This document shows, piece by piece, positions 4,058 through 64,000 of a DNA stretch of 64,000 nucleotides; position 1 is the first letter of the stretch, and each line of letters starts with the position of its first letter. The notes beneath the pieces are model-generated. The model was not told the origin of the DNA and did not search any database. It was given only the letters and a program-made list of their open reading frames with translations. This stretch comes from Candidatus Oxydemutator sp. (GTDB lineage: Bacteria > Pseudomonadota > Gammaproteobacteria > Poriferisulfidales > Oxydemutatoraceae): positions 256,001 through 320,000 of the forward strand of contig OZ241883.1 in NCBI GenBank assembly GCA_965203445.1. Direction: 5' to 3'. The translations under genes were made by a program, and so were the position numbers.

Positions 4058-4738
4058 TCAGCGCACGGCCTCTATGCTCTTGTGCGGCAGGAATATGCCG
4101 CAGCCGAGCTTTTGTCCGTCTCCCAGACCCTGCTGCTGCAAACGCACCGTCTCGTCGAACGTCAGGCCGCCGACCATCAGGCTGGACACCACGATGTCGC
4201 CGTCGGGAACGCGCACGACGCGGCGGCGGCCGCTCATCATTTTGCGCGCGACGATGCCCTTTTGCCGCAACAGGGACGCGGCCCGTTCGAGGAAGGCGTG
4301 TTCACCGCCGTGCGCGGGCGCCGCCAGGCGGCGCGTGAACAGCGTCGTCTCGCGGCTGAGCGGATGCACGGCGGCGGCGCCGACGGCAATCTCGTAGCCG
4401 CCGGCGTCGAGCGTCGCGCCCACGAGAGCGCGCGCGTCATCGAAGCGTTGCTTCGGCAGGCGCAGGCGCAGGCGCGCGCGCCGCGACAGGTGGATCTCGT
4501 CGCGCCCGCCCTGCGGGCGCATCCAGCCGCTGCCCGACTCGGCGCCGTGGATCGAATGGATGGCCGCGAGCGGTTCGTCGTCCAGCCACGGCAATATCTC
4601 GACCAGCGCCCGGTACAGATGCCAAGCGTGGTCCGAAGGCAGGCGGCGGCAGACGACGCGAAAATGCAGGTCGGCGACGTCGTCGGGCACGCGCAACGGC
4701 CGATCTTCTTCGCCCGCCTCTCGCCAATGCGGATTCAT
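4058..4738 (-). CDS. cas6: Stand-alone Cas6-like RAMP protein (Cas6/Cmx6, Myxan-type)
   Basis: N-terminal DLHF...LPSDHAWHL, LSRRARLRLRLP, C-terminal Gly-rich loop GLGDGQKLGCGIFLP typical of Cas6. Confidence 0.8.
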   Translation of the reverse strand: MNPHWREAGEEDRPLRVPDDVADLHFRVVCRRLPSDHAWHLYRALVEILPWLDDEPLAAIHSIHGAESGSGWMRPQGGRDEIHLSRRARLRLRLPKQRFDDARALVGATLDAGGYEIAVGAAAVHPLSRETTLFTRRLAAPAHGGEHAFLERAASLLRQKGIVARKMMSGRRRVVRVPDGDIVVSSLMVGGLTFDETVRLQQQGLGDGQKLGCGIFLPHKSIEAVR

Positions 4739-4932
4739 CGGACGTTGTCGGCGGCCGAAAAGGCGGCTTCCAGCCGCGCCTCCCAGTCTTCGGGAGTATC
4801 CGCAAACGGCGGGCGCACGTCCATCTCTATGAAAATCTCGCCGGCGCGCGCACGGCTTTTGACGTATTCGACGAGTTCCCCGAAACTAGACCAGTCGCGG
4901 TTGCTCATCAGTGCCTCGCTGATTGCGAGCAT
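4735..4932 (-). CDS. Small conserved protein of sulfur oxidisers (recalled as often labelled DsrC-like, but has no Cys)
   Basis: 65 aa, MDVRPPFADTPEDWEARLEAAF motif; ATGA overlap with cas6. Confidence 0.7.
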   Translation of the reverse strand: MLAISEALMSNRDWSSFGELVEYVKSRARAGEIFIEMDVRPPFADTPEDWEARLEAAFSAADNVR

Positions 4933-4935
4933 CGC

Positions 4936-6357
4936 TCAAGTTCGACCCGATTCCGCTTTGGCGACGGGTTTGCCCGCCGGCGCCTTCCTGGCAAGTCGCT
5001 CGACTCTAGTGACGTACAGGGTCTGACCATCGTGGGTGGCCAGCCGCCAGGCGCTGACCGAAATGGACTTGGCGACGGGTCTTGGACGAGACAGCGCAAC
5101 CGCCCGTGCCGTCGTGACACCCAGCTTCAATTCGCACCCGTCGCCGTTGCTTGCGAGTTCCGACAGGATTGACTGCGCTGACGGGGGAGGTGTGACGAGG
5201 CTATGGCCGGCCCTTTGCGGGCCGTCGGCCATTTTGGCCGCCATGGCCTGAAGATACTTCGCATCCTGAACTTGCAGCCAAGGCGACGGCAACCACTCGA
5301 CGCCGGCAAGACATCCCAGCAGGCCGCCGGCCATCGCCGCCAGAGTATCGGTGTCCGCCCCCTTCTCGAAGGCTGCCCTGAGGATGCCTTGAACCGGCTG
5401 CGCCGCGTGTCGCGCCGCAAGGTACGCCGCCGCCGCCGCGCTGCTGGTTCCCGCTCCTTTGGCGCGCCCGAAGCACCCGAGATGCTTAAGAGTCGAGTGA
5501 TCGTCGGCAAGCGCCCCGGCTTGCAGTCCCTTTCGCGCCGCTTCGAGCAGTTCGCGCATTTCGCAAACCGTGTTCTCCCAAAGTTCGCCATAACGACCGT
5601 CCGTCGCCTCCTCCGCCGCCTCGAACCACGCACCGCCCTGGCGCTCGGATTTCGGCAACTGACTCCACTCGGGCGTTTGATCAATCAACAGTTCCAGCAA
5701 TTCGCCGAATCGAAGCGTGCTGCGGTTGCGGGTCAGGCACCAGGCGGCGTAGGCGTATGCCGCCGCCCCGACGAGGGCGCGCGGGTGGCCATGGGTGGCG
5801 GAACCGTCCAAAATCACGTCGTGAATAAGGGTGGCGGCGTTCGCCTGCCCGGCGAGAAACAACGCATGCGGCAGGGCGCGCATGGCCACGCCGTTGCCGC
5901 CGGCCTCAAAGTATTGGCGAACGCTGTTTTTCCGGGTGGACTTCCACGGCGGACACCCGTCGGCCCAAGCTGCGGCGGCGCGCCTGGTGGCGCCGCCGCC
6001 ACCCCGCTCGTACAGCGTCCACAACGGCAGTTCTACGCGAGTGAACGCCTTCCACCAAGCCGGGCCATGGTTCGCCCTGCTACGCGCCACCGCAAGCGTC
6101 AGCTGCGTATCATCGCTGTAGTCTCCGGCGTGAATGACTTCCTCAAACGGATGGAAACGTCCGCCGCTACGCCGCGTCCATTGCGTGAACTCCACCTGAG
6201 GGTTTGCCGAAACGATCTTGCGGACGCTCCCCGGCATCTCTTGCGGCCAGCCCAGCGCGTCGCCGGCGGCCAGCGCCAGAAAGGCGCCCTCGGCCTTCGC
6301 CAGCAGCGACAAACCCGGCCCCCGCGGCTCGTGCCGGCTGCTATCCGGCATTGCCAT
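4936..6357 (-). CDS. ADP-ribosylglycohydrolase (ARH/DraG family) with C-terminal extension
   Basis: AAGDALG, YSDDTQL, GNGVAMR, THGHP, GADTDTLAAMAGGLLG; AAGGAG 6 nt before ATG 6357. Confidence 0.9.
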   Translation of the reverse strand: MAMPDSSRHEPRGPGLSLLAKAEGAFLALAAGDALGWPQEMPGSVRKIVSANPQVEFTQWTRRSGGRFHPFEEVIHAGDYSDDTQLTLAVARSRANHGPAWWKAFTRVELPLWTLYERGGGGATRRAAAAWADGCPPWKSTRKNSVRQYFEAGGNGVAMRALPHALFLAGQANAATLIHDVILDGSATHGHPRALVGAAAYAYAAWCLTRNRSTLRFGELLELLIDQTPEWSQLPKSERQGGAWFEAAEEATDGRYGELWENTVCEMRELLEAARKGLQAGALADDHSTLKHLGCFGRAKGAGTSSAAAAAYLAARHAAQPVQGILRAAFEKGADTDTLAAMAGGLLGCLAGVEWLPSPWLQVQDAKYLQAMAAKMADGPQRAGHSLVTPPPSAQSILSELASNGDGCELKLGVTTARAVALSRPRPVAKSISVSAWRLATHDGQTLYVTRVERLARKAPAGKPVAKAESGRT

Positions 6358-7120
6358 CTTCATCTCCTTGTCGAAACTTGTGCTCCTTTGGAATTTCTCC
6401 GGAACGGAGCATATCCCTGAGCTTTTGCGGATCAAAAAAATCCGGAACAATCAGGATAGGAAGCGGGTCGGCATGAAGCATCTGCATCCGCACCGCCTCT
6501 CTCTTGGCCTGCGCTTCATTGTACACTGCAACTCCAATCACATCCCGCCATTCGACACGGTCGGGAATAAGAACCTCCGCCTGTTGGTCAGTGGGCAGAA
6601 AGGCGGGATGGAGCGGACCGCGTATGAACGTTCGGTTACCTTCTACAGTTTTTTCAAAAAGACCTTCGAATGCCTGCTCACCCTCCTGAACATATTTGCC
6701 AACCCCCGCCGCCGCATTGCGGGGGCAGAACTTCGTGCCGGGGCGCCATAGATAGTAGCACCTGATCAACAGCACGACCCAGTCTTTGAAGAGACACTTG
6801 CCTGCACTGTCGAACGGGCCGGGCGACCCCGAACCTTGCACGACGCAGTCTTTGAAGAGAGGCTTGCCTGCACGCGCTTTTTTGAAGTACCAGGCATTAG
6901 GATACTGAATGGAGCAGCATACATGATCCGGATACCCATCGAAACGATCCCTATCCGTCGGATTGAAAACCGCTCTCTCATCCTCCTTAAGCTGTTTCGA
7001 GGCGAGGACGCCATGCTGATCCGTCACTATATGCCCGAGATTACGAGACGGCGTGAAGTGACACAGTCTGGTGATGCCGCGCCTTTCAGAAGCTTCTTTG
7101 ATTGCAGTAATTTCCTTCAT
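6341..7120 (-). CDS. darT: DarT (DUF4433) ssDNA ADP-ribosyltransferase, DarT1-like
   Basis: LCHFT..RNL, DRFDG..HVCCSIQYPN, DWVVL, FCPRNAA, TDQQAEVLI with the catalytic Glu. Confidence 0.85.
   Translation of the reverse strand: MKEITAIKEASERRGITRLCHFTPSRNLGHIVTDQHGVLASKQLKEDERAVFNPTDRDRFDGYPDHVCCSIQYPNAWYFKKARAGKPLFKDCVVQGSGSPGPFDSAGKCLFKDWVVLLIRCYYLWRPGTKFCPRNAAAGVGKYVQEGEQAFEGLFEKTVEGNRTFIRGPLHPAFLPTDQQAEVLIPDRVEWRDVIGVAVYNEAQAKREAVRMQMLHADPLPILIVPDFFDPQKLRDMLRSGEIPKEHKFRQGDEDGNAG
6772..6873. repeat. Two 36-bp direct repeats (33/36 identical) separated by 30 unique bp inside darT
   Basis: 6772-6807 GCACGACCCAGTCTTTGAAGAGACACTTGCCTGCAC and 6838-6873 GCACGACGCAGTCTTTGAAGAGAGGCTTGCCTGCAC. Confidence 0.9.
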
Positions 7121-8499
7121 TGCAGTTGATACAAGGCTTTGTTATCCGGCAGCATGGCCGTAACTTGTCCGGAGTGCGTCAGCACCAGGGTGGACCTGGC
7201 CCTGGTGATGCCGACGTATAACAGACGTCCATTGCGCGTCGCCGCTTCTCCACCCCCTAGAAGTTTGACATCGGTGGGATCGGGCCAATGCTTCCTCGAA
7301 AGAAGCGGCAAAAAAACCGTGTCGAACTCCAGTCCCTTGGCGGCATGATAGGTTCCGAAGAAGATGCCGGGGCCGCCCGGCCATTGATCCAGCGTACGAT
7401 GAAGCCGCATCGCACCGGGTATCTGCCACTCTTGTTTGCGCCTTCTGAAAAGAATGGCCACGGTTCCCGTCCGCGCAAGCCCGGTCGCCTGGGAGATAAC
7501 AAACTGTTTTTCCTGCTGTTCATCCGGCAGTTCCCTTAGCGCCGGCGGCGGCTCGTCGGCGACTGGTGCCTTGGGTTCGACCAGATCGGGATCGCGCGGA
7601 AAATACGGCATTTTGGCAAGCGCCAAGGCAAGTCTGGCAATCTGCGGCATGTTGCGATAGTTCTCCTTAAACCGCCAAATCGGATTTTTTACACGAAGAC
7701 CGGCGCTTCGCCACGACACGCGGTGTCCGTATATCTGCTGGGCGATGTCTCCGAAGAAAGTCAGGCTGCCGTTTGGCGGAATCGCCGCCACGAGCGAGCG
7801 CAACATCTCCGGAGAGAAATCCTGCCCCTCGTCAATGACGACGTGGCGGTAACGGCGCTCGCTTCCGTCCCGTTGCAATTCTTTAAGAACGCCGCTGGCA
7901 AGGTCGTTCCAATCGTACAGCTTGCCGTGGCTACGGCGTTCAATCAGGTAGCGTTCGTACAAGCCGAACACGGCGGCCCGTTCGTTTCGCACGACACGAG
8001 TACCGGCTCGACCTGTGCGTTCGGCTTCGATGTAGTCTTGCTCCTCGGTGATTCCTTGCTGCTGGATCCATGCAAACTCTTCATCCCAGAACTCGGGCGG
8101 GCGCTCCAAGGAGGTGCCGGACAATCCATCGGTCTGCGCTCGCCTTATCACATCGCGTATGCATTGCCGCCGCTCCTCAGAGCCGCAGATACCTCCCCAT
8201 GACAACTTGCCTCGGGACGAGAGATAGCCTGTTGCGAACTTGTGGTAATTCTCTACGGTGACGGGTTTCTGATGCGCGCCGGCCAAGTGCCTCATATAGG
8301 TGACCAGACACTTGTTGAACGTCACCAGCAGCGTTCGCCCGCCATGGTCGGTGTTTGGATGGGACAAGTAGTTCGAGCGGTAAATGGCGAGCGTGGTCTT
8401 GCCGCTGCCGGCAGTGCCTAATACCACCGTGTGGCCGTGCGCGGGCAGGTACAGCACTTCCTTCTGCCGACCCGTCGGTCGCGGTAGCGGAGCGGCCAT
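7117..8499 (-). CDS. Compact superfamily 1 (UvrD-like) helicase/ATPase
   Basis: Walker A GTAGSGKT, LLVTFN, Walker B IDEGQD, GDIAQQIY, ENYRN, TYHAAKGLEF, LLYVGITRAR. Confidence 0.9.
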   Translation of the reverse strand: MAAPLPRPTGRQKEVLYLPAHGHTVVLGTAGSGKTTLAIYRSNYLSHPNTDHGGRTLLVTFNKCLVTYMRHLAGAHQKPVTVENYHKFATGYLSSRGKLSWGGICGSEERRQCIRDVIRRAQTDGLSGTSLERPPEFWDEEFAWIQQQGITEEQDYIEAERTGRAGTRVVRNERAAVFGLYERYLIERRSHGKLYDWNDLASGVLKELQRDGSERRYRHVVIDEGQDFSPEMLRSLVAAIPPNGSLTFFGDIAQQIYGHRVSWRSAGLRVKNPIWRFKENYRNMPQIARLALALAKMPYFPRDPDLVEPKAPVADEPPPALRELPDEQQEKQFVISQATGLARTGTVAILFRRRKQEWQIPGAMRLHRTLDQWPGGPGIFFGTYHAAKGLEFDTVFLPLLSRKHWPDPTDVKLLGGGEAATRNGRLLYVGITRARSTLVLTHSGQVTAMLPDNKALYQLQ

Positions 8500-8584
8500 C
8501 AGACGACGTGCCTCATGAACTCGTTTCGCTTCATCGGGATGGGCAAGTGAGCGTCGTTCATCAATTCGGGCGGCGGGAGCGGGG

Positions 8585-8590
8585 ATTATA
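8585..8590 (-). promoter_or_regulatory. Putative -10 box for the helicase-darT-ARH cassette
   Basis: Perfect TATAAT on the minus strand about 85 nt upstream of the helicase; no convincing -35. Confidence 0.4.
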
Positions 8591-8643
8591 ACTGTATGCG
8601 CTCGCCAATTTCCGACGGGGCGGCGGGGCGCCTTGGTACTACG

Positions 8644-9555
8644 TCACGTCGGCGGACGCCAGCCGGCGGCGCCGAGGCGTTTGCGGTAGCGGGCGCGGTA
8701 CAGCAGGCGGGGGGCGTCGTCTTGGTCCTCGAAGGCGTCGCGCGTGTGCAGGACGTTGTTGCAGACGACGCCCTCGGACGCGGCCAGGCGGCGGTGTATG
8801 CGCCAGTCGCTCGTCGCCAGTATCTCGCCAAGGCGCGTCAGCGCGTCGCGGCACTCGGCGCGCCATTTTATATGCCGCGCGCGCGCCGTATAGCGCGTAA
8901 GCAGCGCGCCGTCGCGCGCATCCACCGCGAACACCGGCACGCTGCGCGCCGGGCGTATCTGCCCGCCGTCCTCGACGTTGGCCGGCAGCGTCATCGCGCG
9001 CGGGTGCATCAGCTGCTCGACGTGGCGCGGGTCGTCGTCGCGCAACAGAATATAGACGAGTTCGGGATCGAGATAGCAATTCGCGCCGCCGCTTGCCGCC
9101 GCGCGCACGCAATACATCGAAAAAGCGCGCACGGCGTCGGCGGCGGAGTTGTAATAGCCGTCGGTGTGCCATTGCAGCGCGCGGCGCGTGTATGGAACGT
9201 AGCGGCTGCCCTCGAGCGCGCGGACGTGGCTGATGCGCCCGGCGTCGGCACACGGGTTGGCGATGAGATCGCCAAGCCCCAGTTGCTGGCCCATGCGCTT
9301 GAACGCGGCGCCGTCGCGCAGCGGCTTCGCAAGACGATAGAAACACAGGTTGGCGCGGCGGCAGTTGGCGATGATCGCGGCGCGCTCGGCGTCGCTCAGC
9401 GCCTGCGCGTCGGCGACGACGACGGTCAGTTCGTCCGCCGAGCGCGCGCGCGTCGCCAGCTTGCGTTCGCGCCAGCGTCGGTACGCGGTTTCGTTGCCGG
9501 GCACGAACGGCGAATCGGAACGGTCGGCGGCAGTCGTCGGGAGCGGATGCGGCAT
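8644..9555 (-). CDS. TauD/TfdA-like Fe(II)/2-oxoglutarate dioxygenase-fold protein
   Basis: WHTDGYY (HxD) and NNVLHTR (distal His); start could be 9555 or 9588. Confidence 0.8.
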   Translation of the reverse strand: MPHPLPTTAADRSDSPFVPGNETAYRRWRERKLATRARSADELTVVVADAQALSDAERAAIIANCRRANLCFYRLAKPLRDGAAFKRMGQQLGLGDLIANPCADAGRISHVRALEGSRYVPYTRRALQWHTDGYYNSAADAVRAFSMYCVRAAASGGANCYLDPELVYILLRDDDPRHVEQLMHPRAMTLPANVEDGGQIRPARSVPVFAVDARDGALLTRYTARARHIKWRAECRDALTRLGEILATSDWRIHRRLAASEGVVCNNVLHTRDAFEDQDDAPRLLYRARYRKRLGAAGWRPPT

Positions 9556-9611
9556 ACTGCGCCCACTATATAGCGCGTGCCGCGCCAAACGACAAGAACA
9601 CGTTCCGACAA

Positions 9612-9710
9612 AAACCCCTTTCCCAGAGGGAGAGGGTTTGATTATGGGCCTGCAGCTGCCCTCTCCCAGAGGGAAAGGAGTTCATTTTTTGGCCCTTTTT
9701 GGCCCAAGGG
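9612..9710. repeat. REP-like palindromes (CCCTCTCCC-N-GGGAGAGGG type) plus TTGGCCC sub-repeats
   Basis: AAACCCCTTTCCCAGAGGGAGAGGGTTT at 9612-9639 and CCCTCTCCCAGAGGGAAAGG at 9659-9678. Confidence 0.65.
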
Positions 9711-27647: not shown

Positions 27648-27798
27648 GGCCCATCCTCTCCTAGGGGGAGAGGATTACAGGGTTCTCGGCCCAGCTTCTC
27701 GGCCCAGCTTCTTCGGCCCATCCTCTCCATAGGGGGAGAGGATTACAGGGTTCTTGGCCCGGCCTCTTGGCCCAGCTTCTCCTAAGAGGGAGAGGGTT
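27648..27798. repeat. Tandem REP/BIME-like array: two ~67-bp units plus a partial third
   Basis: GGCCCATCCTCTCC(A)TAGGGGGAGAGGATTACAGGGTTCT twice, with GGCCCAGCTTCT sub-repeats; hairpin ATCCTCTCC/GGAGAGGAT. Confidence 0.8.
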
Positions 27799-63502: not shown

Positions 63503-64000
63503 TTATTCTCGCGCCGCAGTCTCCGTCGGCGGGCGCTGACGGCTGACGTCATGGCCGCCGTAGCGCAGCACCGGGTACTGGGTGCTCGTGCCGAAGTCCC
63601 ACGGGTTGTCGCCACCCGCCACGCCGTCCAGGTTCACGTTCCAGGCGGCGTAGATTCCGGTGTAGGCCGTCGGCGCGCGCAACTCGGAGGTGCTCTTGCC
63701 CACACCACCGCGACTCGTTGACTGACCGGAGGTATCGGTGTTCCAGTAACTGTTGGTTACTGTTCCGCTGTCGAATGCTCCTCCTACGAGGCCGCCTGCC
63801 CACGACCGCCACCACGACCACCCGCTGACCGCCCCCGTCGCGTAACTGGCGGCTATCTTCCCCTGGTTCCCCCCTACGAGGCCCCCCTTATAACTCTCCC
63901 CATCGACCGCCCCCGTCGCGTAACTGGCGACTATCTCGCCAGAGTTATCCCCTATGAGACCGCCTGTCTCGAACCTCCCGTTAACCGCCCCCGTCGCGTA
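63503..64000 (-). CDS. GLUG-repeat surface/secreted protein, 3' part (runs off window end)
   Basis: Manual translation YATGAV..GGLIG..ASYATGAV..GGLVG..ASYATGAV..GGLVG..NSYWNTDTSG..WDFGTSTQYPVL. Confidence 0.85.
   Translation of the reverse strand, partial: YATGAVNGRFETGGLIGDNSGEIVASYATGAVDGESYKGGLVGGNQGKIAASYATGAVSGWSWWRSWAGGLVGGAFDSGTVTNSYWNTDTSGQSTSRGGVGKSTSELRAPTAYTGIYAAWNVNLDGVAGGDNPWDFGTSTQYPVLRYGGHDVSRQRPPTETAARE

Follow-up and report, generated by a model that had tools for sequence, protein, structure and literature searches.

A probable DarHTG-type helicase–DarT–ARH operon, horizontally acquired and carrying two private lesions, in a Candidatus Oxydemutator genome

DarT-family toxins are known from systems in which the adjacent gene encodes an antitoxin that removes ADP-ribose. 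In DarTG1, DarT1 is paired with a NADAR protein (Schuller et al. 2023, PMC11543638; structure 8baq), and NADARs reverse guanine ADP-ribosylation (PMC11543638); in DarTG2, which has an anti-phage role, DarT2 is paired with the macrodomain protein DarG. Macrodomain and NADAR proteins are the only DarT partners named in the available portions of PMC11543638, PMC9503650 and PMC12945103. Another arrangement was published in April 2026 by Liu et al. (Nucleic Acids Res 2026, PMC13069673), who gave the E. coli system Liu-DS3 the name DarHTG. According to the available part of that paper, DarHTG consists of DarH, a UvrD-like helicase without domain 2B, of DarT, and of DarG3, an antitoxin with an ADP-ribosylglycohydrolase (ARH) fold that resembles archaeal and eukaryotic ARHs; it has anti-phage activity in E. 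coli, its function requires both the active site of DarT and the ATP site of the helicase, attempts to obtain a DarG3 mutant did not succeed, and the system is commonest in Thermodesulfobacteriota and Bacteroidota. Our literature search found no further paper on a helicase–DarT–ARH trio. Here we describe such a trio in a 64,000-nucleotide stretch of DNA from Candidatus Oxydemutator sp. (contig OZ241883.1, positions 256,001 to 320,000; hereafter the window); the genome, with dsr sulfur genes, is assembled as one contig of 2.38 Mb and has a completeness rating of 100%. We conclude, with a probability of roughly 80%, that the trio is a horizontally acquired copy of DarHTG type that carries two private lesions and has kept its catalytic residues.

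The three genes are co-oriented on the minus strand and overlap, as a preliminary description of this DNA had reported from the letters alone. The first (7117..8499) encodes a DarH-like superfamily 1 (UvrD-family) helicase of 460 aa, recognized in Pfam as UvrD-helicase (7e-15) and UvrD_C (1.6e-16), and its translation contains Walker A (GTAGSGKT), Walker B (VIDEGQD) and motifs V/VI. Residues 12–76, 212–296 and 554–615 of UvrD (3lfu) align with residues 10–75, 215–294 and 379–443 of the window helicase; because only 85 residues (294–379) stand where UvrD has 258 (296–554), the protein is predicted to be without a 2B domain, as is DarH. The second gene (6341..7120), which overlaps the helicase gene by 4 nt, encodes a DarT1-like single-stranded DNA (ssDNA) ADP-ribosyltransferase of 259 aa (PF14487, 3.9e-20, 72.9 bits against a cut-off of 22.5) with the motifs QAE (E182), CPRNAA and DWVVL. 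The third (4936..6357, starting at 6357 and overlapping darT by 17 nt) encodes a DarG3-like ARH-family hydrolase of 473 aa (PF03747, 8.1e-41), in which the catalytic domain and a small beta domain are intact and a C-terminal module is missing; the SDD (81–83) and DTD (335–337) motifs are present. The key motifs that had been called intact, Walker A/B, the DarT glutamate and the two ARH metal sites, can thus all be read in the translations. The further DarT motifs that had been listed are there as well, except that the pattern given as DxRxDG is wrong, the true form being DxxRxDG (D56, R59, D61 and G62). Upstream of the helicase gene lies a leader (8500..8650, minus strand) with a single TATAAT at 8590–8585, on the minus strand and 86 nt before the helicase ATG. 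The hexamer is where it had been said to be, though a consensus scan for a sigma-70-type promoter with two hexamers found none in 4600–8800. A look-up of RNA evidence listed no source for this DNA.

Each feature described for DarHTG has a counterpart here: the gene order is helicase, DarT and ARH-type antitoxin, the helicase is UvrD-like, apparently 2B-less and with conserved ATP-binding residues, the DarT-family transferase has an intact active site (R59, D61, N135 and E182), and the antitoxin has an ARH fold and not that of a macrodomain or NADAR. The host range also agrees, as the family to which the trio belongs occurs in Bacteroidota and many other phyla. The window copy differs in that its DarT carries 22 inserted residues and its ARH is missing the C-terminal module, and in lying outside any defence island, in a genome with dsr genes. 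The preliminary description had proposed a candidate undescribed system; that part fails because the arrangement is the one already named DarHTG (PMC13069673, in the part available), a case the description had itself foreseen. We regard the earlier interpretation as partly supported, right in substance and with its novelty gone.

Several observations weigh against assigning the trio to DarHTG. Membership rests on architecture and folds. Searching plasmids with DarT and ARH by tblastn gave no E. coli record, and blastn with four loci of the family (L069, L076, L056 and L055) found no trio in 5,426 E. coli genomes, the sole match there being the NADAR gene of an ordinary DarT–NADAR pair (DarTG1). 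The PADLOC models of 2023, which the description had named as a check, gave a weak match to DarT (1.8e-8) and none to the ARH, and there is no defence island around the window trio. One could therefore suppose a distinct, undescribed system that resembles DarHTG in domain content only, since the likeness to the E. coli system was judged by architecture and folds instead of sequence and since PADLOC 2023 has no ARH model. We consider this very unlikely, as it would leave unexplained why order, 2B-less helicase, DarT and ARH-fold antitoxin all match, and why a system described as frequent in Thermodesulfobacteriota and Bacteroidota (PMC13069673, available part) should find its likeness in a family with 14 Bacteroidota loci (13 of them with an ARH) and three metagenome-assembled genomes (MAGs) labelled 'Deltaproteobacteria'/Myxococcota. 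The DarT loci seen on Klebsiella and Acinetobacter plasmids are not trios.

The extent of the family was determined by scanning one genome per species, which yielded 80 loci with relatives of the window DarT, and by scoring the trio in each by tblastn with the three window proteins. Helicase, DarT and ARH are present in the same order and on the same strand in 70 of the 80 loci, and ARH follows DarT in 74, mostly with overlapping reading frames. An intact helicase is missing in four (frameshifted in L020, decayed in L060, none in L044 and L053), the window query found no ARH in two (L055 and L080), and DarT stands alone in four (L062, and L057, L073 and L075, in each of which the contig breaks off just before DarT on its upstream side). 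The trio is found in Pseudomonadota, Acidobacteriota, Latescibacterota, Chloroflexota, Cyanobacteriota, Planctomycetota, Bacteroidota, Bacillota and Actinomycetota; the hosts of all 80 loci belong to nine or more bacterial phyla, with a single Nitrosopumilaceae MAG besides. A metagenome scan with DarT added 23 loci, none above 54% identity. Conservation of the trio elsewhere, which the description had left to a survey of gene neighbourhoods, is thereby established, and the helicase, which it had taken for a working partner, agrees in this respect with published DarHTG.

The same counts bear on the antitoxin. The idea that the ARH is a third type of DarT antitoxin agrees with the published DarG3, and the loci point the same way, with the trio order kept in 70 of the 80 and a NADAR in the ARH position of one. 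It could be argued that the ARH reverses protein ADP-ribosylation, has nothing to do with DarT and is adjacent by chance, given that the characterized bacterial ARHs, DraG and Tri1, act on proteins. We find this highly implausible, as ARH stands after DarT in locus after locus across phyla, usually in overlapping frames, as the window ARH is the sole ARH in its genome, and as a NADAR replaces it in L055. DraT/DraG and Tre1/Tri1 offer a parallel, in that an ARH-family hydrolase neutralizes its cognate ADP-ribosyltransferase; theirs act on protein arginine, whereas the window transferase is a DNA-modifying DarT, and the ARHs of the window family have a beta domain and, in relatives, also a tail of DNA-binding type. 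We also searched the complete genome for other partners. It has one DarT and one ARH, no NADAR was found with PF08719 and PF22397 (the genome of L055, searched with PF22397 as a positive control, did yield its NADAR gene), and its only macrodomain genes are two stand-alone ones at 1.05 and 1.33 Mb, about 0.8 and 1.1 Mb from the trio (the window lies at 0.26–0.32 Mb). The earlier statement that no NADAR or macrodomain gene is visible in the window stands, and a NADAR elsewhere as the real partner, which had been entertained as a possibility, is not there.

We assigned the DarT type by comparison with solved structures. The DarT family profile matched only E. coli C7 DarT1 (8baq, E 4.1e-28) and no DarT2 structure at E ≤ 1. 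When residues were equated through the profile alignment with 8baq and given the roles described in PMC11543638 (available part), R52, D54, S63, F72, K74, N104, Q150 and E152 of DarT1 were found to be kept as R59, D61, S70, F79, K81, N135, Q180 and E182. N104 is the guanine-holding Asn, which is a His in DarT2 (PMC11543638). The window DarT is by these matches DarT1-like, as had been suggested from its motifs, and it has in common with DarTG1 the Asn that coordinates the base as well as the catalytic residues Arg, Asp and Glu. Three other guanine contacts of DarT1 are changed (N48 to T55, M71 to Y78 and Y75 to A82), which counts against our reading. The trio also departs from DarTG1 in having the helicase as a third conserved component, in a family antitoxin that is an ARH of about 550 aa with extra domains, and in a host genome free of NADAR; with DarTG2 it has in common a DarT-family toxin next to an antitoxin that removes ADP-ribose, and from it the trio departs in the Asn where DarT2 has His and in having no adjacent macrodomain in the window.

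One relative links the family to DarTG1. In a Paraclostridium MAG (L055:4564-7324), a 467-aa 2B-less helicase and DarT, 32% and 37% identical to those of the window, are followed by a NADAR in place of the ARH, and this NADAR is of the DarT1-associated antitoxin type (PF22397, 286 bits). We found no mention of such a helicase–DarT1–NADAR variant in the available part of PMC13069673. NADARs reverse ADP-ribosylation at guanine N2, and the swap would therefore mean that guanine is the base modified by this clade of DarT and that ARH and NADAR serve the same purpose. We put forward tentatively, at just short of even odds, that the helicase–DarT1 pair is a conserved core that exchanges both its de-ADP-ribosylase (ARH in 74 of the 80 loci, NADAR in at least one) and that enzyme's C-terminal module, and that DarG3 thus removes ADP-ribose from a DNA base. 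In the parts of the literature available to our search, no report was found of an ARH removing ADP-ribose from a DNA base.

The fold of the ARH was addressed through P0276, a relative of full length and 76% identity that was modelled with AlphaFold from a 139-sequence alignment (mean predicted local distance difference test score, pLDDT, 89.3). Its best Foldseek match was ARH3 (6hh4, E 1.5e-9, TMt 0.76), followed by archaeal MJ1187, DraG, the Tre1–Tri1 entry 6dre and ARH1, and TMt was 0.68–0.76 against ARH3, MJ1187, DraG and ARH1. This agrees with the likeness to ARHs of archaea and eukaryotes described for DarG3 (PMC13069673, available part). By sequence, the best PDB matches of the window ARH were DraG (7.6e-10) and ARH1. 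The structure is nearest to the serine-specific ARH3 and the sequence to the arginine-specific DraG and ARH1, so that the matches do not agree on the chemistry of the adduct. The middle beta domain had no PDB match (profile search, best E 0.44) and no usable match in a protein atlas. A predicted complex of DarG3 and DarT from a relative, L012, scored 0.00 and 0.00 and is evidence neither way.

The trio is an insertion relative to the nearest genomes. On one side it is flanked by a XerC-like recombinase gene, dapF, a cas6 gene of Cmx6 type (4058–4738, minus strand; TIGR02807, 129 bits against a cut-off of 98.85) and a small open reading frame (ORF) of 65 codons (4735–4932), and on the other by a gene for a TauD-like dioxygenase (8644–9588), which adjoins it, and by dsrAB; the immediate neighbours are those that had been named before. 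In three genomes of the same genus (G001, G002 and G003) dapF, cas6 and the small ORF are followed directly by the TauD-like gene, with 24 nt between them in G001 and without the trio in any of the three. Aligning the junctions with these genomes placed the limits of the island at about 4933 and 8650 (minus strand), so that it holds the three genes and their upstream leader only. Its base composition is foreign, as the description had noted in calling the block AT-rich: GC is 0.607 in the island and 0.711 and 0.646 in the flanks, with 0.54–0.60 over 6500–8500 against 0.69–0.73 in the left flank, and GC at third codon positions (GC3) is 0.565 in darT, 0.681 in the helicase gene and 0.749 in the ARH gene against 0.848–0.919 in five native neighbours (dapF, cas6, the TauD-like gene, dsrA and dsrB). 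To judge from these comparisons the trio was acquired horizontally, as a bare piece of 3.7 kb that now separates the small native ORF from the TauD-like gene. DarT was found in only two of 31 related genomes searched, the second being G011.

That genome, of the same family, has two adjacent helicase–DarT-like copies (G011:C1:1878721-1883409, L119-L121) with 66–70% DNA identity to those of the window; in one, DarT has an in-frame TGA, and in the other DarT is partial. The cas6 gene, between dapF and the 65-codon ORF, keeps its position in the same-genus genomes. Some 63 nt (9616–9678) in the gap from the TauD-like gene to dsrA have at least 10 other copies in the genome at 76–84% identity and are probably an intergenic repeat like the repetitive extragenic palindromic (REP) elements.

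Relatives of the trio often have defence genes nearby. In a scan of 115 flanking ORFs from 23 loci against PADLOC, which left out two further loci, 14 of the 23 had a defence match at E ≤ 1e-10 within 6 kb, a raw count given without a background rate. Four trios lie within BREX operons or immediately behind them: in L006, L012 and L016 the end of BREX pglX is the start of the helicase gene, in L014 one gene lies between, and in L006 pglZ is two genes downstream of the trio (L006:1104-11974; L012:993-8368; L014:58-8374; L016:1491-8380). Other matches near trios were to Druantia with Wadjet, type I restriction-modification, pAgo, Dpd, Lamassu and Dnd. These neighbourhoods bear on the proposal that the trio is a housekeeping regulator of replication or growth that works through reversible DNA ADP-ribosylation and has no part in defence. 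Such a role is described for DarTG in M. tuberculosis (PMC12170906, available part), and the window trio itself has no defence neighbours. The idea is nevertheless very unlikely for a block with a foreign base composition that three same-genus genomes do without and whose DarT is found in so few of its kin, with relatives beside BREX, Druantia, restriction-modification, Lamassu and Dnd, and with an E. coli counterpart that protects against phages (PMC13069673, available part).

The preliminary description had taken the copy as intact, overlooking both a 66-bp insertion in the toxin gene and an ARH gene whose 3' part has been lost. The first lesion shows in the length of DarT, 259 aa against 226–245 aa in its best 120 homologues. 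Its 22 extra residues are absent from 13 of 13 aligned homologues, one of them 91% identical over the aligned columns, and the loop from PNAWYF to the Trp of the DW motif has 34 residues in the window DarT as opposed to 11–16 in 133 of 133 homologues (exactly 12 in 119). By the DarT1 structure the insertion falls between the helix with the DNA and guanine contacts (F72–Y75) and strand beta-3. In the DNA (6772..6873) the 66 bp, inserted in frame, involve two direct repeats of 36 nt (6772–6807 and 6838–6873) that are 92% alike and 66 nt apart, with a filler of 30 nt (6808–6837) between them. The filler corresponds, with three mismatches and in reverse orientation, to the stretch coding for LSNGPGDP in a carA-like gene 1.7 Mb away; the reversed pattern, used as a control, had no matches. 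The insertion looks like a templated repair scar, composed of a duplication and carA-derived filler. We rejected a mobile element, since the filler matches carA-like coding sequence, and an assembly artefact, since the insertion is found without any difference in Logan contigs from two runs of the same sample. In a related sequence from a different study's run, 17 other letters connect 6786 with 6870, which makes it 66 nt shorter.

The second lesion is the shortened ARH. Its 473 aa compare with 497–648 aa, mostly 551–565, in the best 120 homologues, and 71 of the 72 ARH ORFs taken from the loci run on for 55 residues or more past what they share with the window; the remaining one, L063, has no tail and is a broken copy. 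The tails are of several types. Twenty-six belong to one type, for which the model shows a disordered linker followed by three helices and a hairpin. This type may be a winged helix, a call based on the helix-helix-helix-hairpin topology of the model and on helix-turn-helix (HTH) matches that are all sub-threshold: of 23 tails, 12 match TrmB and 10 match HTH_29, and the best E in the PDB is 0.027. A further 24 are like glyoxalase/bleomycin-resistance proteins, and the three of these that were scanned (L019, L027 and L042) are above the Pfam cut-off (PF00903); 12 are of a Bacteroidota type and three of a Bacillota type, and six are singletons, including a DprA/SLOG-like fusion in L053, a locus without a helicase (relatives with such other modules: L019:6695-8515; L027:6695-8518; L042:6696-8450; L053:6683-9088). 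A quick DarT tree places the window within a clade of 20 rows (Shimodaira–Hasegawa-like approximate likelihood ratio test, SH-aLRT, 98), 18 of which have a tail of the winged-helix type. The window ARH stops within the linker, and its TGA (4936–4938) is 1–5 nt from the island junction; in a 96%-similar contig from a sponge-metagenome run, 711 nt of unlike sequence run onward from the ARH stop. By these comparisons the window ARH has lost its C-terminal module at the insertion junction. The small ORF at 4735–4932, which is in frame after the ARH stop, was considered as the lost tail and rejected, as its best E against relatives' ARHs was 0.2 and as it is kept beside cas6 in same-genus genomes that have no trio. 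The ARH of the closest relative (P0274, 94% identical) is frameshifted after residue 386.

Whether the copy still works was weighed from what it has kept. We counted private changes at strongly conserved columns (97% or more) and found two of 98 in the helicase, none of them in the Walker motifs (relatives' median 1, maximum 11), none of 46 in DarT, and one of 73 in the ARH, this being the truncation itself; all three proteins are within the range of their relatives. With all catalytic residues in place and decay showing nowhere else, the lesions would be recent or tolerated. On balance we lean towards a toxin that is crippled or attenuated, in which case the truncated antitoxin would be tolerable; the chance that the system still works we put somewhat below one half. 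Speaking against a crippled toxin are the insertion itself, which is in frame and within a loop, the conserved residues kept in all three proteins, and the ARH, whose catalytic and middle domains are whole, and the AlphaFold model of the insert-bearing DarT offers no help, as it came from a 14-sequence alignment with a mean pLDDT of 56.7 and was not used.

A fully working DarHTG, in which the loop insertion is tolerated and the catalytic and middle domains of the ARH suffice without a winged-helix tail, is in our judgement somewhat less likely than not. It would sit well with three open and overlapping reading frames, intact catalytic motifs and only 0–2 private changes per protein, and because the C-terminal modules of the ARH vary between clades (winged-HTH-like, glyoxalase-like, DprA/SLOG-like) they may be accessory. 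It is harder to square with a loop of a length seen in no homologue, adjoining the helix that makes the DNA and guanine contacts of DarT1, with a filler that is a scrap of carA-like sequence and speaks for a repair scar rather than an evolved feature, with the near-universal retention of the ARH tail, and with the frequent decay of related copies (the in-frame TGA in G011, and L020, L060 and L063).

If the trio is a DarHTG copy as we propose, it would act as follows. DarT, being DarT1-like, would transfer ADP-ribose from NAD+ to a base of ssDNA, most likely to guanine N2, and replication would be blocked; DarG3, the ARH-family protein, would remove the adduct, and the cell would survive. DarH may spend ATP on providing the ssDNA substrate or tracking it, or else on coupling the toxin's release to phage DNA. 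In the present lineage the operon would have arrived as the bare 3.7-kb piece, with the insertion in the toxin loop and the loss of the antitoxin tail at the junction.

Elsewhere in the window three tandem repeats were seen. An array at 963–1249 (21-nt unit, 13.7 copies; period 42 with 93% matches) lies inside a long ORF (39–1496) without a Pfam match, 27648–27780 holds 2.0 copies of a 68-nt unit, and 63817–64000 holds 2.4 copies of a 78-nt unit and runs past the end of the window.

The architecture itself is known already, having been published and validated in E. coli in April 2026 (PMC13069673, available part). What the window adds is a 3.7-kb insertion that three same-genus genomes do not have, a DarT with an insertion of its own and an ARH clipped at the junction. 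The comparison extends this to a family that is widespread and often embedded in BREX and other defence loci, whose antitoxin has interchangeable C-terminal modules, and the NADAR found in the ARH's place yields a testable prediction for the base that is modified and the bond that DarG3 cleaves. The window copy would be a natural example of how a toxin–antitoxin defence system decays soon after its transfer.

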